From the IMG/VR virus record IMGVR_UViG_2049941000_000086: DNA of 64,000 nucleotides; one strand, given 5' to 3'. This document shows positions 5,049-61,610 of the stretch, piece after piece. How positions within the stretch are numbered: position 1 is the stretch's first letter; each line of letters begins with the position of its first letter. The notes under the pieces were generated by a model. It made no database searches. It saw only the letters and a program-made list of their open reading frames with translations, and was not told where the DNA came from. The DNA is from an uncultured virus (IMG/VR IMGVR_UViG_2049941000_000086). Taxonomy: Duplodnaviria > Heunggongvirae > Uroviricota > Caudoviricetes. Position numbers and translations under genes: made by a program.

Positions 5049-5921
5049 TTATCCGTTCTTCCGGTTGTATTCGTCGTTCCGCAGGATCATCGCCAGCACT
5101 TCTTCCCGCGTCGCCGTGTCCGTGGGTCGGTACTTCCCGTTCTTGGCTTCCGTGATGATGCCGCGCCGGATTCCCTCTTCCCAGTATGCCTCGCTCCACC
5201 GCCCCTTGTAGTCCGGGATGACCGGGGCAGGCTCTTCCGGCTTGTACTGGGGACGGCACGCCCCCACAACCTGACGAGGATAACGCACCTTCTCGCAGAC
5301 CATGCCCCCATTNNNNNNNNNNCCATTCGGTCTGAAAGAGCCATCTTCGTAGCCGGATATGATTCCTATTCTCCTGCCCCACGTAAAGAACTTTTCCGAC
5401 CATGTACCGATATAGTCAGGTTCATCCGATATTGGTTCCTCCGCCTTATATTGCGGACGGCACACGCCCACAACCTGACGAGGATAACGCACCTTCTCGC
5501 AGACCATGCCCCCATTGTCTTGACTGGTGTCTCCGCTGGTGGTGTTGCCCTCGATGGTCTTGATGTAGAGGATGCTTCCCCCAGACCGCTCCACATGGGT
5601 CACTAGTCCACAATGCTGAGGTTCAACTGTCCCAGAGAAGTTGAGGATGACGATATCCCCCACCTGCACCTCTCTCACAGGCACGGTCAGCTCCTGCTCC
5701 CTGTACCACCGCAGCAGGACGGAACAGGAAGCCGTTTTGCCGCCGCCGAAGAATGCCATGCGCTCCCCGGCCTGATTGAACAGCCAGCATAGGAAAATCA
5801 CACACCAGGGTACACCGTTCACGCCGTACCAAAAGCCGTATTTCGTGAGATTGCTCCCGGCTGGCTCCTCCGTATTCCCCAGCTCACCCCGGGCAAGCTC
5901 GATCACTTTACTCAGACTCAT
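5049..5921 (-). CDS. CHAP-domain endolysin with SLH-like C-terminus (two alternative tails across an N gap)
   Basis: PWCVIF, HCGLV, TIEGNT CHAP motifs; GIISGYEDGSFRPN and YRPTDTATREEV SLH-like motifs. Confidence 0.85.
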   Translation of the reverse strand: MSLSKVIELARGELGNTEEPAGSNLTKYGFWYGVNGVPWCVIFLCWLFNQAGERMAFFGGGKTASCSVLLRWYREQELTVPVREVQVGDIVILNFSGTVEPQHCGLVTHVERSGGSILYIKTIEGNTTSGDTSQDNGGMVCEKVRYPRQVVGVCRPQYKAEEPISDEPDYIGTWSEKFFTWGRRIGIISGYEDGSFRPNXXXXNGGMVCEKVRYPRQVVGACRPQYKPEEPAPVIPDYKGRWSEAYWEEGIRRGIITEAKNGKYRPTDTATREEVLAMILRNDEYNRKNG

Positions 5922-5930
5922 GGGGCCACC

Positions 5931-6748
5931 TCACGAAATCCCGTAATGAGCCATGATGCTCTGCATATTGGCAATTACCGTTGCTTCAGGTTCCGCACCA
6001 GAAACAACAGCCATATACTTGATGTCATAATTGCCACCGTATGTGTAACCGCCCATCCGCAAGGTTGTGGAGAACTCTGAATATCGGCCTGTTTTGCTTG
6101 GGACAAGAGCCCCTTTTTTGACCGCATCAACATAAAATGTACTGGCTTGTCCACCCCCGGCATCGGATACGGCAATACAATGGAATCCGTCAACAGCGCT
6201 TACACCAGTATTTGTATTTCCTCCATAGTAAGTGTAATTTATATTCGTTCCGTTTCTATATAAACCCGGAGCCTCGCCAATACTGTTGGAATATACGTTC
6301 GATATAAGTCTGCTGATACCAGAGGAACTCAGGCTTTTGAAAACCATATAGTTCGTGACAGGTGTATTTGCCGCACCAAGGTCATAACAGGCACTCATCC
6401 CGTCACCATTGAAATGCACAGACCCATCTGCCTCTATTTCCATCAAAGACGAACCGACAAGGGCTAAGTTGCCCCACGTTTCTATTCCGACCTCATAGTC
6501 TTCACACATGGCTTCGGCAAGGATGGAACTGGTCGCACTTGCCGTAAGTAAGGTGTAGATATTATAATCTGCCCCGTACACAAGTTCGCCACGCGTAAAA
6601 CCACTGTTTGCGTCTTGGATGGCAAGCAACCCATAAGCCTGCTTTTGTGCTGTGCTTAACGCATCCCATTGCGCTCTTGTCAGCAGCGGCACATCACCGC
6701 CTCCGCCGCCAGAACTACCCAACATCACAGGGTTTCCCCAAATGCTCA
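5931..6748 (-). CDS. putative receptor-binding/lectin-like virion protein
   Basis: MSIWGNPVMLG start, Gly linker, LTRAQWDALS motif, beta-rich LamG-like C-terminus. Confidence 0.55.
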
Positions 6749-7471
6749 TGTGTCTACCTCCGTAACAGTGCATTGCACCGACATTTCCGCCGTCGTTTCG
6801 GCTCCCACCGCATACGCCGTCAGCGTCCCGTTGTTGTTTTCGATCACCAAGCCCGTCACTCCGTCAGAGATAAGGCTTGCGATTTGTGCTGCCGTAGGCT
6901 GCAAATCGACCCGGCTGTTTGCCGTCACCGTTGCTCCTGTGACCGTCACCGTCTGCGAGTAGGGGCTTGCGCTCCCCGTCCATGTGTCGGAAAGCGTGAC
7001 GCTTCCGACTGCCGGTGGGTTTGCCTTTGCCGCGACTGCTTCCGCCAAATTTGCCACGTCAGCCGCCAGATAAGCCCTGTCCCAGTGCGCCGAAGTCCAC
7101 GCTTCCGCCGGGTCGATATCCTGGTTTGCTCTGTAAAGCAGCCCAAGCCGAATGCAGTAATCTCCTTCGTCGTAGGTGGCCGTCTCGTCGTAATCCAGAG
7201 CCAAGTTCCCGTTGGCGTCCTCGTCCGCTTCCCATACGTTCGCGTCCTCCGCTGCCGTCACCAGCTTGTAGATCGTGGGAGGGGTGGTGCTGGTGTCGGC
7301 GTACCGCTGCCCCGCTACGCCGGAGGTATACTGTGTCGGGGCTCCGTTTCCCGTCAGGATTTGGCTGTTCTGAAGAGTACCGGAGATTGCCATCAGTTCC
7401 GTGTCGTTGATGGCGGGTGCCATCCCGTCGATCCACACCGGAGCGACGTAGTTCCCGTTATACATCGGCAT
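6746..7471 (-). CDS. virion structural protein
   Basis: 241 aa; YDEGDYC..LYRAN..WT.AHW carbohydrate-binding-like motif; C-terminal domain paralogous to 24104-24448. Confidence 0.65.
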   Translation of the reverse strand: MPMYNGNYVAPVWIDGMAPAINDTELMAISGTLQNSQILTGNGAPTQYTSGVAGQRYADTSTTPPTIYKLVTAAEDANVWEADEDANGNLALDYDETATYDEGDYCIRLGLLYRANQDIDPAEAWTSAHWDRAYLAADVANLAEAVAAKANPPAVGSVTLSDTWTGSASPYSQTVTVTGATVTANSRVDLQPTAAQIASLISDGVTGLVIENNNGTLTAYAVGAETTAEMSVQCTVTEVDT

Positions 7472-42565: not shown

Positions 42566-43447
42566 TCACAATGCTCCTTCCGTGTCCGAGTAGTCATAGT
42601 TGGCAGTCCGGCTTCCGCTCCCGCCATTTGGCTTCTTTCCCTTGATGCTTGCAAACGCCACGCCCATGTATCCGTTGGCAATGCTGTCGGAAATGACAGT
42701 CATCACAGCCTCATCCCCGTACTGTTCCGCGTAGCCCTTTACCTGCGTGATGAACTTCTTTATGCTCACAGGCTTGTAGGCTTCCCGGCGCTGTTTCTTG
42801 TACTTCAGCCATTCCACCACGGAGTCTGCCATCGGTTTTGAGAGTACGGACAAATCCTTCTCGAACTCTTCTTTCCCGTAATCCGTCTTCTTGGAGGGTT
42901 TTTTCTCGTCTTTTTCATTCCCCCCCAGACCCCCCTTTAGGGGGGTATCTTCTTCTATATCTTCTTCTTTATCTATATCTATTCTTATTCTAGGTGCGTT
43001 ACATTGCGTTACATCGTAACGCTCTGTAACGTTACATAACGTTACGCCGTTATTTTCCTGTAATGCCTTTTGCCGCTGCCTGTAATTTGCTACGCGGTTT
43101 CTGTTCTGCTCCCGAATCTTATCCAGTCCCTCTGCGTTCTGATGCGCGGCCCAATCCTCGATCACGAGGAATCCGTCCCGTCGAATCATGCCGAGGCTTT
43201 CCAGCGCATCGAGCGCAAGTATCACCGTGTTCTCCTCAAAGTCCAGTTCATCCGCCAGCATCTTCGGCGTATAGGGGATGTTCTCCGTGAGAAATATCAT
43301 CCCGCCAGCATTGCACTTCCCTGCCAGAGAGAGGAGCATCACCCAGATAAGAACGATGTTGTTTCCGTCCGGCAGCTTGCGGAGATGCCGAATCTTCCGA
43401 TTCTCGAACATGTCCGTAGTTATCTTTATCCACTTGACTTCTGACAT
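42566..43447 (-). CDS. phage replisome organizer/initiator
   Basis: VKWIKITTDMFENRKIR..LPDG N-terminal domain; internal iterons. Confidence 0.9.
   Translation of the reverse strand: MSEVKWIKITTDMFENRKIRHLRKLPDGNNIVLIWVMLLSLAGKCNAGGMIFLTENIPYTPKMLADELDFEENTVILALDALESLGMIRRDGFLVIEDWAAHQNAEGLDKIREQNRNRVANYRQRQKALQENNGVTLCNVTERYDVTQCNAPRIRIDIDKEEDIEEDTPLKGGLGGNEKDEKKPSKKTDYGKEEFEKDLSVLSKPMADSVVEWLKYKKQRREAYKPVSIKKFITQVKGYAEQYGDEAVMTVISDSIANGYMGVAFASIKGKKPNGGSGSRTANYDYSDTEGAL
42955..43047. repeat. putative replication origin (GTTAC/GTAAC iterons plus AT-rich tract) inside the initiator gene
   Basis: GCGTTACATTGCGTTACATCGTAACGCTCTGTAACGTTACATAACGTTAC next to a TCTATATCT-rich tract. Confidence 0.65.
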
Positions 43448-45069: not shown

Positions 45070-46134
45070 TCAGGAAAAGAAGCTGCCTAGGACGTCGTCT
45101 TCGTCGTCGGGCTTAATGGTTACCGCTTCCTTCACCGGCTCAAAGGCCACGTCCTGCGCGGTCGGCTCTGCGGATTCCTTCTTGGGTCGTCCGCGTCCCT
45201 TCTTCACCTGCTGGTCAGCCTCGACCGAGGCTTCGCCGTCCACCGTTCCTTCCGTGTCCGAAGGGTTAATCTGGACGCTCTGCTCCCTAATCTCCCCGGT
45301 TCCGGGGTCCACGTTCATCACGTCGAAGGAAGCGAGGGCTTCCGCGTCCTTGGCCTCCTCGTCCTCGCGCTCAAGGACCGTGTCGATGTTGGTGATGGCG
45401 CGGAGCTGGACGTAGCCGCTGTTCAGCAGACGGCGAATGACCGTCTTTTTCATCATGGTCTCGGTGGCCGAATACCACGGGCTTTTCTTCTTAAGCCGCT
45501 CCGCCTCCTCCGGGCTGAGGTCGCCGCTGATAAGCTGGCGGTATTTGGAACGGTCGAAAGTCTTGGAGTACTGCTCGGCGTGATCGAGAATTGCGCCGAG
45601 GCTCATGTACTCAGAGCGGAAGAAGCCGTCCTTTTTCTCAACGTAGGCGTAGTAGCCGATGATGGGATGCTGCTCCGCTTCCTCGTCCGTGGCGTAGATG
45701 GAGAAGTCAAACTCCGGGCGCTTCGTCCGGCGGTTGCGTCCGACGTACTCTCCCTCACGAATTTCCACGCAGTCCATGTCGGCCACGTCGCCGCCCGCCA
45801 TCGCCATTGCGATGAGACCCTTGTATGAAATCTGGAAGCTGGCAGTCCCGGCGTAAGGAACGACATAATAGCCCATGCCGAGCATGAGACCCATGCCCTC
45901 GCCCCGGAGAGCCGCCGCCACGATGGAGGCGGGATTGCAGTTCTGGAGTTCCGTGCTGGAAACCACAAGGGAAATCAGGCTCCCGGTCAGACGGGCGGCG
46001 CTTTTGGCGTCCGGCGTGGCTTTCTTAATCATGCCCTGGAGGGCGTTGCCCTGAATGGCAACGGAGAACTTTTCCTGCTTGTTTACGATAGCGCCATTTC
46101 CGCTCGTGGTAAGCGCGTTGTTAGGTCTAGCCAA
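45070..46134 (-). CDS. recT: RecT-family recombinase
   Basis: CNPASI, YVVPY..FQISYKGL, MMKKTVIRRLL. Confidence 0.9.
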   Translation of the reverse strand: MARPNNALTTSGNGAIVNKQEKFSVAIQGNALQGMIKKATPDAKSAARLTGSLISLVVSSTELQNCNPASIVAAALRGEGMGLMLGMGYYVVPYAGTASFQISYKGLIAMAMAGGDVADMDCVEIREGEYVGRNRRTKRPEFDFSIYATDEEAEQHPIIGYYAYVEKKDGFFRSEYMSLGAILDHAEQYSKTFDRSKYRQLISGDLSPEEAERLKKKSPWYSATETMMKKTVIRRLLNSGYVQLRAITNIDTVLEREDEEAKDAEALASFDVMNVDPGTGEIREQSVQINPSDTEGTVDGEASVEADQQVKKGRGRPKKESAEPTAQDVAFEPVKEAVTIKPDDEDDVLGSFFS

Positions 46135-48885: not shown

Positions 48886-49533
48886 TCAAAACCGTATCGG
48901 TGCTCCGGGGCGCTTCCCCGTCTGTACCGATTCCCAAAATTCTTCTTCCTGCTGAAGTAGCCACGCGAGATCAGCTTCATGCTCGCTGCGTTCGATAACG
49001 AATGCGTCCTTCAGGGTGATATCCCCGTTCATGTGCCACAGGGCCGGTTGCAGTACCACAAAGTCCCATCCGGTCGCAAGCAGTTGGTGGATGCACTGGC
49101 AGTAATACGCTTGAGGTATTTGACCGTCCCACTCTCTCCATGCCTCCCGGCTGTTTGGGGCAGAGGTCTTAATCTCCAAAATTCCGTTCCGACCGTCAGA
49201 AGATGTAATCTGCCCGTCAAGCGTCGCAAACAGCCAGGGCCGTTCCTCCTGATACAGAATGTCGTAGGGGTGGTACTCAATCCCGTATTCCGGGTGGAGG
49301 GCGGCGTAGAAGCCTCTCACAGCGGCCTCCATCAAATGCCCTCGTCCAACGTAATCCTTGCCGCTGATATCCTTCCGTTCCCTGCGCCCGGTGTGGATTT
49401 CCCAAAGTTCGTTTTTGGTCATCCACTTGGACATCCCGCAGACCGCCGCCGCCTCTGAAGCGCCCAACCCCCGCTCTGCTCGTCCCGCCAGCCAGGATGC
49501 CCGGTCAGGGTAACTAATTCGTTGGAGTGCCAT
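48886..49533 (-). CDS. YqaJ-like exonuclease
   Basis: GLGASEAAAVCG, ATLDG, LEIKT, YYCQCIHQL. Confidence 0.92.
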   Translation of the reverse strand: MALQRISYPDRASWLAGRAERGLGASEAAAVCGMSKWMTKNELWEIHTGRRERKDISGKDYVGRGHLMEAAVRGFYAALHPEYGIEYHPYDILYQEERPWLFATLDGQITSSDGRNGILEIKTSAPNSREAWREWDGQIPQAYYCQCIHQLLATGWDFVVLQPALWHMNGDITLKDAFVIERSEHEADLAWLLQQEEEFWESVQTGKRPGAPIRF

Positions 49534-50177
49534 TACGCCTGCATCACGTCAACGAGGTGGTAGCGCCCGTAGCCGCTGGTCCGCCCGCTGCCGATACCGA
49601 GACCGAATCCGGCGAGGTTGATGAAGCTGCAAAGTTGGTCGAGGCTGTAAACGTGGTCGGTGTAGTCCATCTTGAAGACGGCTTTCCAGCCGGAGAAGTG
49701 GCTGAGGCGCGTAGTGATGGGGGCACCGCGCTTCGGGGACATGAGGGTTTCCTCCAGCGTCCACTTGGCGAATGTGATGGGCACCAGGTTCCGCATCGCC
49801 ACGATGTTCACGGCGTTATCGACCTTCGTGGCGTACTTGTCGATCTCATTGCGGACGACGGCCTGACCGAAGGACTTCTTCAAACCGAAAGCGGAAATGC
49901 AGGGGGCGTTGTCTTTCAGCAGGGACTTGAGCATGGCTTCGTCACAGTCCTTGTAGGTGTCGGTGGTGGGCAGATCGTCCCGCCAGTGAATCGCGGTGAT
50001 GATGTCCTCCCAGGGGTTCGGGACTTCCCGGACCTTCTTGCGGTCGTCAGCCATCAGAGCGCGGCGATTCCGGGCGTTCATCTTGTTCAGGACGAGATCG
50101 CCGTCACCTTCGATGGTGATGATTGCGTGCTTGATCTTGATGGGTTCGATTTCGAGAATGTTGGCGTCCTTTTTCAT
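49533..50177 (-). CDS. solo RAMP/Cas7-like protein (Vipr-like effector candidate)
   Basis: ITIEGDGDLVL first strand, PCISAFGLKKS (cf. PxIPxSSLKG), C-terminal Gly loop AGFGLGIGSGRTSGYGRY. Confidence 0.75.
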   Translation of the reverse strand: MKKDANILEIEPIKIKHAIITIEGDGDLVLNKMNARNRRALMADDRKKVREVPNPWEDIITAIHWRDDLPTTDTYKDCDEAMLKSLLKDNAPCISAFGLKKSFGQAVVRNEIDKYATKVDNAVNIVAMRNLVPITFAKWTLEETLMSPKRGAPITTRLSHFSGWKAVFKMDYTDHVYSLDQLCSFINLAGFGLGIGSGRTSGYGRYHLVDVMQA

Positions 50178-50210
50178 GGTTTGCCGTTCTCCCTTTCTGA
50201 TTTAGAATTG

Positions 50211-50953
50211 CGCTCATGGGCGCGAGAATGACCTGTAATGTTGTGTCCTGTGCTATAAGGAACTGTTGTTGCTAGTAGTATTCCTTTGTATCCAGCAGTG
50301 TGTATATGGCGTTACAGGCCATTCTCCCGCCCGTGGGCGGTGTCCCCGGTCATCGTCGAAAGCTCGATGTTTTGTCATGCTGCGTTCTGTCCTCTGCCGA
50401 AGTGACATAGGCAAAAGTCAACTGTCTGCTGCGATTCCGTATCGTGCTTGGAGAGCATCAAGCCCTCGACGATGACCGGGGCGGTGATGTTTGTTCCGGG
50501 TTATGCTGTATTGTTCTGGTCTATCGCGTAATGACTTGTGCTGTGCTTTACTTTATTTTTCTGTACGGTCTGTGGTCGCTCCAGAGAGCGCCGGGAAAGG
50601 TTCTACCTTCTGTTATAGTGTGCTATCGTATAGTCTTGTCTTATAACCTGTTGTGAATTGACAAGTCCGCTGTTGCCATGATTGATACTGTTGAAAGTGA
50701 ATTTGTGATTTGAAGGGAGAGCCCTTCCCGGTGTCCTCTGTTTTGTGCTGTAATGCAGGATAGTAAAGCGTTCTCGGCTGTTACGTTCTGATTTGTACCG
50801 AAGTGCGATGCGCTTGCACGGCGAGTGCGCGGAACGCTCGTTTTGATTTATAGTGTGTTGTTATGTCTCACGCTGTTATTTCGTGAGTAAAGGTGTTCAA
50901 TCCGTTTTTGCAGGATTATTTGTTGGGAGCCGAACGCTCCGCGCACTCGCCGT
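50211..50953 (-). ncRNA. guide-RNA-like array: four ~27-30-bp stems and six tracts of NN+ACA-like pentamers
   Basis: Inverted repeats 50211-40/50310-39, 50344-72/50453-81, 50584-610/50712-38, 50818-44/50927-53; YGT-NN periodicity on the + strand; strand inferred from the flanking genes. Confidence 0.8.
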
Positions 50954-50959
50954 CAGAGT

Positions 50960-51466
50960 TCACGCCGTCTTGGATAGTTCCTCCACCGCCTCAATCAGCC
51001 GGGTCAGTTCCGCCCGGTCTTTGAGGATGCTGTATTTTCGCTGAAAAGCCAGCAGTTCACTCAGGGCTGATTGGAGAAGCCGCTGATATTCGTCGTCGTT
51101 GCGGACGGTGAATTCGATGGACCTGTACCCACGTTCCTCCTCGTTGCTTTCGGAATCAACGCCGCCGGACAGGTGGAATATCCTGACGGGTTCTGATACT
51201 TCGTCGTCGCTTTCTGCCGTTCGGATAATCAGGTGGTGGACGATGGTTCTTGCTTCCTGCTTGCGCCACTTTTCGGCGGCGGCATCGTTGTCCCATGTGA
51301 AGCACTTGTGAAGCTCCGTCGCTTCGTCCCGCGCTTTCTCTACGATTTGCTCCGGCGTTGCAGTGTCACCGATGCTTTTGATTTCCCGATAGACGCCCTG
51401 TGCGTTCGCTCCGTGGAACAGGCACTCAAAGCGCGGGTCCCAGCTCGCTATCAGTTCTCCCCTCAC
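50960..51466 (-). CDS. hypothetical protein upstream of the array (accessory candidate)
   Basis: TPEQIVEKARD..LHKCFTWDNDAAAEKWRKQEAR motif; GGAGG RBS. Confidence 0.75.
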   Translation of the reverse strand: MRGELIASWDPRFECLFHGANAQGVYREIKSIGDTATPEQIVEKARDEATELHKCFTWDNDAAAEKWRKQEARTIVHHLIIRTAESDDEVSEPVRIFHLSGGVDSESNEEERGYRSIEFTVRNDDEYQRLLQSALSELLAFQRKYSILKDRAELTRLIEAVEELSKTA

Positions 51467-51686
51467 TTTCTTCCTCCTTCTGAATCAGCCGATACCTGGC
51501 GTACCGGCAAGTATCGCCGTCGCTGTTCTTTCCTTCTTCCATCGTGGTGACGATGTTGTGGCCGAGCCTTTTCAAGTCGTAAATTCTTCCGGAAAGTCTG
51601 GTGCAACGAAAATGCTGGATGGCTTCCCAGCTCGTGATGCTTCCGTGCTCCTGAAGGTAGGCCAGGATCTTTTCGCTGTCGCTCAT
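51426..51686 (-). CDS. winged-HTH protein (HTH_39-like)
   Basis: ILAYL..GSITSWEA..CTRLSGRIYDLK..G..I..YARYRL. Confidence 0.75.
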   Translation of the reverse strand: MSDSEKILAYLQEHGSITSWEAIQHFRCTRLSGRIYDLKRLGHNIVTTMEEGKNSDGDTCRYARYRLIQKEEESEGRTDSELGPAL

Positions 51687-52306
51687 GCTGTCACCTCCAA
51701 TTTCTTCGCCGCCGATCTTTCCCGGTCCTTCGCCCGGATTTCCTCCCGGTGCTTCTCCCGCCATCGCCGCTTGTATTCCCTTATCTGCTCCTTGTGAGTG
51801 AGGCGGTACATTGCCCGGTAGGCAGCTATCTCGTCCTTGTGTTCCTCCGCATATCGGCGGAACCGTTCGGCGTACTGCTCCTTGTTTGCCTCGTAGTGCG
51901 CCTTGTGGTACTCCGCCAGTTCTTCCCGGTGGGTCTCGCGGTAAGTACGACCTCGCTCTTTCTCTTTCTCAGGTTCAGCTTCGCGCACTGCCTTTGCCCG
52001 CTCAAGCACGGTCTCACGATTGGCGGCGTACCATTCACGATGCTTGGCATTGATTTCCTCGCGGTGGGCTGCACGGTAGGCTTTCTTCTTCTCGTGGATC
52101 TCTTCCCGGTGATCGTTGTGATACTTCCGTGAGCGGAGCGCCGCTTTCGCCGCCTTGGGTTCTCTCCGCTCCTGGCGGATCTCCCAGTCCATTTGCCTCG
52201 CGGCTTCGTACTCTTCCCGGTCAAAGGCGAGCTGCCCTTCGATTTCCGCATCGTATGCCGCCAGTTCTTCCAGTTCTTCCGGGGTAAATGGGATTAAGGC
52301 ACTCAA
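51683..52306 (-). CDS. hypothetical protein with YxxxHREE helical repeats
   Basis: Repeated Y/W-x-x-x-H/N-R/K-E units. Confidence 0.65.
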   Translation of the reverse strand: MSALIPFTPEELEELAAYDAEIEGQLAFDREEYEAARQMDWEIRQERREPKAAKAALRSRKYHNDHREEIHEKKKAYRAAHREEINAKHREWYAANRETVLERAKAVREAEPEKEKERGRTYRETHREELAEYHKAHYEANKEQYAERFRRYAEEHKDEIAAYRAMYRLTHKEQIREYKRRWREKHREEIRAKDRERSAAKKLEVTA

Positions 52307-52464
52307 CCAAGAATCACCACCCCTCGGACGATCATCACCGCCGCAAACAGGAGCAGCCCCCACACGCCGCCGCAGATGNNNNNNNNNNNNNNNNNNNNNN
52401 NNNNNNNNNNNNNNNNNNNNNNNNNNNNNNNNNCATCAATGATGCGCTCTTCTTTGTCATTCAT
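52303..52464 (-). CDS. small membrane protein (N gap)
   Basis: Hydrophobic C-terminus; coupled to its neighbours. Confidence 0.45.
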   Translation of the reverse strand: MNDKEERIIDXXXXXXXXXXXXXXXXXXXICGGVWGLLLFAAVMIVRGVVILG

Positions 52465-53024
52465 TGCGCCACCGCCCTTGCTACCGCCGTCTTGGTGACG
52501 CGCCCTGCGGGGAAATCGTACCGGCGCTTCACGGTTCGTGGGTTCACACCGAGCCATTCCGCGNNNNNNNNNNTTTCGGAGTGAAGAATCAATTCACGCC
52601 CCGGAAATGCTCTATCAAGGCTGGCGAGCGCATCGTGAAATCCGGCGAACTTGCTGACGTCCACGTTTCTTTCTTTGCAAGGTTCTCTTGGTGATTGCGG
52701 CTTTCTGGCGCTTGGGTCTGGTATGAGACCCATTTTCATGGCGTGACGGACGTTTTCACTCGGCGTTACCCATTCCAGATTTGACACATTGTTATGGTCC
52801 TTAACGCCATCAATGTGGTTGACTTGCGGCTTGTTCTCCGGGTTTGGAATAAAGGCTTCGGCGACAAGACGATGAATGCCCTCCATCTTTATCCCGTCCC
52901 ATACAGTCCGGTATCCGCGCCGCCATCCAATAGTGGTCTCCGCTTCTACACCGTAAACGAGCTTTCTCACGGTCCCGTCTTCGTAAACCCGAAGTCTGTC
53001 TCCGCGCATGTCCTTGTATCTCAC
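52461..53024 (-). CDS. HNH endonuclease fused to an HTH-like C-terminus
   Basis: [40 protein letters not shown]. Confidence 0.75.
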
Positions 53025-61457: not shown

Positions 61458-61610
61458 TGGTGCCGAGGGGAGGATTTGAACCCCCACGGTTGAACGACAC
61501 TTCATCCGGTAGCAGATATGGATTGTACTTCTCCACAGCTTGTCAGTGCCAGCACTTCAACTTAGTCTCCGTGTCGTCTGCTCGCTTTTTCCGCATTAAG
61601 CTACCTCGGC
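61458..61610 (-). ncRNA. tRNA-like RNA whose anticodon arm is replaced by a long insertion; CCA end
   Basis: GCCGAGG/CCTCGGC-A-CCA, D and T arms, GACGACAC/GTGTCGTT stem enclosing ~60 nt. Confidence 0.7.

Follow-up and report, generated by a model that had tools for sequence, protein, structure and literature searches.

VIPR systems, the closest described counterparts of the locus analyzed here, combine a small phage-borne RAMP protein (Vipr) with guide RNAs (vrRNAs) built from 9-16 units of the form YNNGG (10.64898/2026.04.26.720920). The two free bases (NN) of each unit read double-stranded DNA, and one target base is skipped per unit, usually at the wobble position of a codon (10.64898/2026.04.26.720920). 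Cryo-electron microscopy of a VIPR complex places one protomer on each repeat, with the anchor bases held by the protein and the NN pairs presented (10.64898/2026.04.26.720927). Non-canonical VIPR arrays, detected through their entropy periodicity and grouped into 21 clusters (GAC/NN, CAC/NN, WGT/NN, TGH/NN), have also been described (10.64898/2026.10.21.760802), as have solo and rival-directed vrRNAs, in which the guides of one phage are directed against close relatives, some of them at or close to the VIPR genes of those relatives, and wobble skipping defeats synonymous escape (10.64898/2026.10.15.759431). Here we analyze a stretch of 64,000 nucleotides (the window) from an uncultured Caudoviricetes virus (IMG/VR record IMGVR_UViG_2049941000_000086), in which a prophage of a bovine-gut Bacillota bacterium very probably carries a VIPR system. 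Positions 50839-50928 would be the loop of the vrRNA transcribed first, with the HTH_39 (helix-turn-helix, HTH) gene of a sibling phage as its natural target.

The array lies in a 780-bp stretch devoid of open reading frames (ORFs) at 50180-50960, flanked by two minus-strand genes of the prophage early and recombination module, which are the vipr candidate and a 168-residue partner gene (Table 1). Over 50200-50960 the DNA repeats every 5 nt, as shown by autocorrelation maxima at lags 5, 10, 15 and 20. It resolves into six tracts of NN + ACA units, four of them closed by stems of 23-30 bp; the four long inverted repeats have arms of 23-29 nt that are 79-91% complementary and enclose loops of 73-101 nt. 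In a logo of the 101 units of the window, information is nearly absent at positions 1 and 2 (0.03-0.06 bits) and amounts to 0.44-0.55 bits at positions 3-5 (A 62%, C 59%, A 66%). The two linker tracts on the minus strand keep the unit phase of the loops, with their last NN one base before the next stem, and no target was found for either. No conserved 3' tail was recognized after the repeat tracts at this locus, where the 23-30 bp stems instead join the ends of four tracts.

The element of main interest, guide 6, comprises the loop 50839-50928 between 23-bp stem arms that, as minus-strand RNA, would form 21 Watson-Crick and two G.U pairs. Reading the minus strand in steps of five yields TC AC TA CT AA, followed by the 13-unit series GG GA CC AC CG TA GC AG TA AC CT AA AA. 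This reproduces the dinucleotide decode put forward for the same loop in an earlier reading of the DNA made from its letters alone (the sequence-only reading). The five 5' loop units, which overlap a possible small hairpin identified by eye (GGAGC-GTTCG-GCTCC), score 00111 or 01101 across all targets, and because they match nothing the working guide is taken to be the 13 units at 50839-50903.

Natural targets for these 13 units exist in other phages. A first scan covered 23 viral loci encoding homologues of the HTH protein and returned, at the same codons of the homologues in L013 and L014, a match better than that in the window's own HTH gene (pattern 2222222120212, 10 of 13 units, 22 of 26 bases, peptide GDPTRYARYFLEN). 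Sequence collections were scanned with a relaxed pattern, in which 19 bases were specified and two doubtful units left open. The pattern retrieved three viral contigs and four metagenome contigs (one of the latter identical to a viral match), and it had no match in the contigs of a one-genome-per-species collection. In all six distinct contigs the match falls in frame at the homologous place of an HTH_39 homologue. Three of them match at 10/13 units and 22/26 bases, and in two independent contigs of about 98 kb, G002 (also L036) and L046, the seven open bases match too, giving 13/13 units and 26/26 bases.

The site in G002 (98,344 bp, rated complete; G002:C1:2804-2841, minus strand) encodes the peptide GDPTRYARYTLNK through the codons GGC GAT CCA ACG CGG TAC GCA AGA TAC ACC CTG AAC AAA, followed by a stop codon. 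In L046 (98,158 bp; peptide GEPTRYARYTLNK) the site starts GGC GAG CCA ACA and continues as in G002. The two targets therefore differ only at skipped wobble bases (GAT/GAG and ACG/ACA), one of which exchanges D for E. Both target genes belong to PF14090 (winged-helix HTH_39), and the target comprises the last 13 HTH codons, G-D/E-P-T-R-Y-A-R-Y-T-L-N-K. The sequence-only reading had predicted that relatives would carry an allele encoding G-[ED]-P-T-R-Y-A-R-Y-T-L, and these two contigs supply it, down to the D/E variation. Its proposal that the guide targets close relatives while the phage itself escapes is likewise borne out, with 13/13 units in the close relative G002 and in L046 and 8/13 in the window's own gene. 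As a control, each of guides 1, 3, 4 and 5 was represented by an exact pattern of 10 units (20 bases), and none of the four scans of viral contigs gave a match.

A second guide can be decoded in the same manner. The 17 units of guide 2 (50368-50452, minus strand; loop 50370-50455) decode to S-A-I-E-A-R/S-V-L-A-W-L-A-G-E-Q-W-K, and its last ten units match in at least 120 viral contigs. Across the 80 loci that were fetched, the sites fall in a polymerase motif, DLSNIEGRVLAWLAGEQWK, encoding ..S-N/A-I-E-G-R-x-LAWLAGEQWK, with an NN identity of 27-32/34, and in 79 of the 80 they lie in frame within an ORF of at least 300 codons. One of these target ORFs is a family A DNA polymerase (PF00476), and we take the target peptide to be the polymerase motif A region. 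A guide of a related locus whose vipr is 71% identical (L006:1161-1210) agrees in 11 of 13 units with motif B of the same polymerases, RQVGKVAELALGY; this match is present in 9 of those 80 loci. Judging from these matches, the Vipr family seems to aim repeatedly at phage DNA polymerase A. Since guides 6 and 2 both decode to real genes, the one-skip code holds for the ACA-anchored branch, which, on the evidence of its decoded sites, is directed at conserved, hard-to-mutate codons of other phages.

The vipr candidate encodes a 214-residue protein predicted to adopt a Cas7-like RAMP fold. The AlphaFold2 model, built on an alignment of 51 diverse homologues, has a predicted local distance difference test (pLDDT) score of 94.8, and its best Foldseek matches in the PDB are Csm3/Cas7 of type III-A, Cmr4 and type VII Cas7 (E 1e-6 to 1e-4, probability 1.00). 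Residues G190, G194 and G204 are invariant in the 51 homologues, and the C-terminal glycine-rich motif GIGSGRTSGYGRY holds three of the five invariant columns. The protein has more than 2,300 unnamed homologues. It belongs to no Pfam family and has no PDB match by sequence, and a tblastn search of GenBank phages with it found nothing. A 5-nt periodic stretch lies just upstream of the homologue gene in 10 of 10 viral contigs (51-100% identity), and in the related loci examined the stems and NN-xCA units recur, the sequences of the stems being wholly different. By its modeled fold, its pentamer array and its target code, rather than by comparison with a reference Vipr sequence, the locus is placed as a VIPR system. 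Three homologous loci in genome collections belong to Bacillota metagenome-assembled genomes (Oscillospiraceae, Eisenbergiella and unclassified Bacillota), and the sequencing runs containing the window sequence are mostly bovine-gut metagenomes.

Of 14 loci searched, 13 have a homologue of the 168-residue gene, a candidate vap accessory gene, adjacent to vipr, the window's own contig (L008) being one of them; the sole locus without one is L169, whose vipr match is partial. The 168-residue protein has no Pfam family, and its AlphaFold2 model (pLDDT 72) has no PDB fold match at E<=0.001. In the phage of L013, which carries one of the 10/13-unit HTH alleles, 5797-7301 holds a distant vipr homologue (20% identity) together with a homologue of the partner. 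An additional NN-xCA tract, 20 units long, occupies L009:4542-4641 on the downstream side of vipr, so arrays can flank the gene on both sides.

The transcribed strand was assessed from G.U pairs in the closing stems. With a strand-blind finder, which treats G.T and A.C alike, 16 elements contain 25 G.U pairs in the vipr sense and 5 in the opposite sense (binomial p = 3e-4); a hand-picked set of 17 elements gives 35 and 9. The vrRNAs are therefore most likely made from the minus strand of the window, with ACA as their anchor.

Several points weigh against the reading of 50839-50928 as a minus-strand guide aimed at a rival phage. The G.U-favored strand carries ACA, and not the published GGY-type anchor or its variants NNNGG, YNNNG and NNNNG. 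Logan contigs from four RNA-labeled runs give little coverage of the region and are strandless (a 233-nt contig covers 50148-50380), and so count neither for nor against expression. For four of the six tracts, exact-pattern scans of viral contigs found no target, and these tracts (1, 3, 4 and 5) remain undecoded because exact patterns would overlook slightly mismatched targets. When related loci totaling 480 kb were scored, the highest value was 7.5 for a skip of one base, as against 7 for skips of zero and of two, in a set too small to discriminate. Guide 6 may also weakly affect the HTH gene of its own phage.

Three further such points concern the strand, and they favor an alternative, unlikely in our assessment, in which the vrRNAs are transcribed from the plus strand, antisense to vipr, as UGU/NN units (equivalent to YNNNG) followed by a 3' hairpin tail, the system and its target being the same. 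On the plus strand the order of tract and then small hairpin resembles the published layout of repeats followed by a 3' tail, UNNUG agrees with the published alternative YNNNG (10.64898/2026.04.26.720920), and TGH/NN is among the non-canonical VIPR repeats (10.64898/2026.10.21.760802). The sole promoter-like site in 49400-52400 is also on the plus strand (50181-50208), at a frequency not above that of shuffled sequence (1 against a mean of 0.9); promoter and terminator consensus counts did not exceed those of shuffled sequence. Against the resemblance of TGT/NN units and a 3' hairpin to the published consensus and tail, only the G.U bias, at 25:5 and 35:9 in favor of the minus strand, can be counted. 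The array does lie within a minus-strand operon, however, guide 2 lacks the small hairpin, and the array at the equivalent position of the sibling G002 reads NNNGG/NNNGC on the gene-sense strand. The target logic is identical whichever strand is transcribed.

The match within the window requires separate consideration. The HTH gene of the phage itself, at 51426-51686, is an HTH_39 gene (PF14090, E 6e-19). When the 11-unit string GG..CT is scanned with one base skipped per unit, it matches 8/11 at 51487-51518 on the minus strand, in frame with HTH_39, as the sequence-only reading had noticed. That reading counted three mismatched units, which is correct for the 11-unit string; the working guide has 13 units and the self site, with codons GDTCRYARYRLIQ, mismatches five of them (eight units match in full, three by half and two not at all; 19/26 bases, 73%, calculated on L011, a contig identical to the window at this place). 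As a chance control, the 101 dinucleotides of the six tracts were reshuffled and all 11-unit sub-windows were scanned on both strands. On whether such matches are common by chance and whether better HTH alleles exist, two questions the sequence-only reading had raised against itself, a maximum of 8/11 was reached in 20 of 200 shuffles (about p = 0.1), yet 13/13 alleles occur in relatives. Taken alone, the in-window match is not significant. It acquires meaning because other phages have homologous genes that match the guide perfectly at these same codons.

The same comparison indicates how the self match arose. The self and G002 HTH proteins are about 57-58% identical, and their genes share 67.4% of codon positions 1-2. 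Since the two genes are homologues, the eight matching self units are shared by descent. Sliding 13-codon windows along both genes gives 12-22 of 26 bases in common, with 19/26 in the guide window, and on this comparison the self match stands at the level predicted by descent, neither enriched, which autoregulation would lead one to expect, nor clearly depleted. A guide placed on the most conserved part of the HTH gene (22/26, 85%) would exceed the 80% line used for natural targets, which we note with no claim of selection. Natural VIPR targets are called at an NN match of at least 80%, and no self hit that high was reported (10.64898/2026.04.26.720920). For guide 6 no self site in the window reaches this value, the best being the one in the phage's own HTH gene, which would have too few matching units to be a target.

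A quite improbable alternative, also contemplated in the sequence-only reading, is weak autoregulation, in which guide 6 binds the phage's own HTH gene imperfectly and tunes its own early operon, the VIPR genes included. The self site is indeed the best guide match in the 64-kb window (the only site with at least 7/11, the next best being three sites at 6/11), it lies about 600 nt upstream within the same minus-strand operon, and tolerance of mismatches may allow binding there. The proposal finds no support, since 73% falls below the 80% cut-off and 19/26 equals the homology level, and the published set is free of self hits at or above that cut-off (10.64898/2026.04.26.720920); the in-window significance of the match is only about 0.1. 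Guide 6 is not tuned to self, because perfect 13/13 targets exist elsewhere.

It is scarcely credible that the tracts have no guide function and serve an RNA-binding protein that forms rings or filaments as binding tracks or sponges, the HTH match being due to chance: three fixed and two free bases do resemble triplet-plus-spacer protein-binding RNAs, the in-window self match is not significant and four of six tracts have no target, but two contigs match guide 6 at 26/26 bases in a homologous gene and at the equivalent codons, guide 2 matches its polymerase motif in frame across nearly all fetched loci, and four control patterns of equal information gave no match. Further ideas by analogy, namely a TRAP-like ring protein (triplets with 2-nt spacers), an annealase track (~5 nt per subunit) and a replication origin, were dropped given the predicted RAMP fold and the decoded targets.

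The guide-6 target contig G002 is a sibling of the phage under study (Table 1), and its site lies 101 nt upstream of the start codon of a Vipr-like gene. Close homologues of the window's vipr and 168-residue gene are absent from G002. Its slot between HTH and the YqaJ exonuclease gene, occupied in the window by the 168-residue gene, the ACA/NN array and vipr, holds a 226-residue ORF that shows, in its C-terminal half, a weak alignment with the Vipr profile over a glycine-rich loop, GLGQWRNSGKGRF (hhalign probability 32%, E 5e-4). Together with a 5-nt periodic array that reads NNNGG/NNNGC on the gene strand, this ORF spans G002:C1:1430-2703 (L036/L038), and the cassette is probably a different VIPR type. 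With a Vipr-like ORF and a GG/GC array in G002, the siblings therefore seem to differ in the VIPR cassette that occupies this locus. Targeting in the opposite direction was not seen: none of the 12 tracts of G002 scores above background on the window. Guides 1-5 of the window likewise give nothing above background on the entire 98-kb G002 contig (scores <=6). It is conceivable, if on balance doubtful, that these phages represent a distinct VIPR lineage of Bacillota with a guanine-free ACA anchor and stem-bracketed guides, in which siblings swap anchor types at the HTH-YqaJ slot and guide 6 shuts off the rival's VIPR and recombination operon, a contest of one VIPR with another among near-identical phages in which the HTH allele serves as an address label.

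Table 1. Features of the vrRNA locus and its surroundings (window coordinates), and genes compared between the window and G002
Feature	Position	Strand	Basis
vipr candidate, 214-residue Cas7-like RAMP (predicted), C-terminal glycine-rich loop	49533..50177	-	AlphaFold2 and Foldseek
vrRNA array remainder	50211..50817	-	inverted repeats I1-I3, pentamer phases
Stem-closed element	50211-50339 (loop 50239-50311)	-	inverted repeat
Stem-closed element with guide 2	50344-50481 (loop 50370-50455)	-	inverted repeat
Linker tract	50482-50581	-	pentamer phase
Stem-closed element	50582-50740 (loop 50611-50711)	-	inverted repeat
Linker tract	50741-50817	-	pentamer phase
Closing stem, 3' arm of guide-6 element	50818..50840	-	inverted-repeat search
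Guide 6 proper, 13 five-base units (NN + ACA-like)	50839..50903	-	flush with 3' stem arm
Loop 5' part, five degenerate units TC AC TA CT AA	50904..50930	-	unmatched in targets
Closing stem, 5' arm of guide-6 element	50931..50953	-	23-bp inverted repeat, 91% complementary as DNA
168-residue partner gene, candidate vap accessory gene	50960..51466	-	phrog_15946, conserved neighbor
Near-self site in own HTH_39 gene	51480..51518	-	8/13 units and 19/26 bases equal to guide 6
RecT			G002 vs window identity 86%
DUF1351			G002 vs window identity 84-93%
113-residue gene			G002 vs window identity 89%
YqaJ			G002 vs window identity 69%
RuvC-like			G002 vs window identity 67%

The neighbors of vipr are the phage recombination genes YqaJ and DUF1351 (Pfam), and the ORF at 45070-46134 is presumably RecT, a reading based on the ORF alone. 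At gathering scores, Rfam reports only three tRNAs in the whole window and no CRISPR RNA family; at E<=1 the array yields a single chance hairpin match (MIR8622, E 0.19). No repeat-spacer array was found in the window, and the array DNA has no similarity to GenBank phages. Elsewhere in the window, 42946-43080 contains a tandem repeat of 12 nt, TATCTTCTTCTA, in four copies and, after it, GTTAC/GTAAC repeats at close spacing; its 5/10-nt periodic signal is not pentamer-coded, and the region may be an origin or an operator. One Rfam tRNA match (61461-61610, minus strand) covers the full 71-position model yet spans 150 nt, so the gene seems to contain an insertion of ~80 nt. Runs of N (masked or unknown bases) at 52380-52433 and near 52560 break ORFs just upstream of the HTH operon.

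The mechanism that we propose draws on the published VIPR systems. An RNA would be made from the minus strand, the strand of the vipr gene, and each of its last 13 units would offer two free bases and an ACA-like anchor. If the solved SUSP1 complex is a guide, the 214-residue Vipr candidate would polymerize along the RNA, each copy holding an anchor and presenting an NN pair; ACA would take the role of GGY as the protein-held anchor. The long stems would serve as processing or capping elements of the guide RNAs, and their length leads us to guess at RNase III. The NN pairs would read double-stranded DNA two bases at a time, skipping every third base, the codon wobble, and guide 6 would in this way bind the last 13 codons of the sibling's HTH_39 gene in G002 and L046. 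Binding at the end of the HTH gene would block the rival's early operon, including the rival's own VIPR-like cassette. Filament assembly, gapped pairing and DNA binding, triplex formation and transcriptional silencing are all expected here by analogy with the VIPR papers.

Type II VIPR (Escherichia phage SUSP1 and a Pseudomonas fulva prophage) resembles this locus in several respects. Both have a stand-alone phage Cas7-like RAMP with a glycine-rich loop and without a CRISPR array, and guides of five-base units in which three bases are fixed and two vary, 13 of them working here against 9-16 in the published guides, with the skip at the wobble. In both, the targets are genes of competing phages, regulators included, and the self match remains below 80%. 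The two differ in the anchor, which is ACA on the gene-sense strand here and GGY in the published systems. They also differ in architecture, as four of the six tracts here are closed by stems and the 3' pseudoknot tail described for type II, in the SUSP1 clade, is not seen. The hosts are Bacillota here (Oscillospiraceae and Eisenbergiella metagenome-assembled genomes) and Proteobacteria there, and no DNA-binding fold is recognizable in the 168-residue partner.

With the non-canonical VIPR arrays the locus shares a 5-nt period and a non-GGY anchor beside a Vipr-like predicted fold, and its plus strand reads TGH/NN. The ACA family may already be among the 21 clusters in the published account. 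The accessible description of those clusters names neither a transcribed strand nor natural targets; at the present locus the G.U bias points to the strand, and two guides lead to real genes. The backbone proteins of class 1 CRISPR systems (Csm3, Cmr4, Cas7), which are the best structural matches, share with the model an RNA recognition motif core and a glycine-rich loop, and published Vipr is described as using the same RNA-binding mode. Unlike class 1 CRISPR-Cas, no CRISPR repeats, acquired spacers or cas genes are seen beside the Cas7-like gene, the guide period is 5 rather than 6, and pairing would proceed in segments of two bases rather than five. Like the rival-directed vrRNAs (10.64898/2026.10.15.759431), guide 6 is aimed at a close relative; unlike those guides, which are of the GGY kind and come from Enterobacteriaceae phages, its site is in an HTH gene and not in vipr.

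VIPR itself, the skip code, regulators of rival prophages as targets, guides at relatives' VIPR loci and non-GGY anchors are all already present in the 2026 preprints. The kind of system is thus not new, and what this work adds is a fully decoded case from the Bacillota, in a non-canonical branch of VIPR. The published one-base-skip code was tested on GGY guides of Proteobacteria phages; here, without fitting, it leads from an ACA array to perfect natural targets in a sibling's regulator gene and to the catalytic motif of phage DNA polymerases, which suggests that the code is general across anchor types. The comparison also shows that a guide's partial self hit can be the homology shadow of a rival target, a caution for the interpretation of self-targeting scores across VIPR systems.

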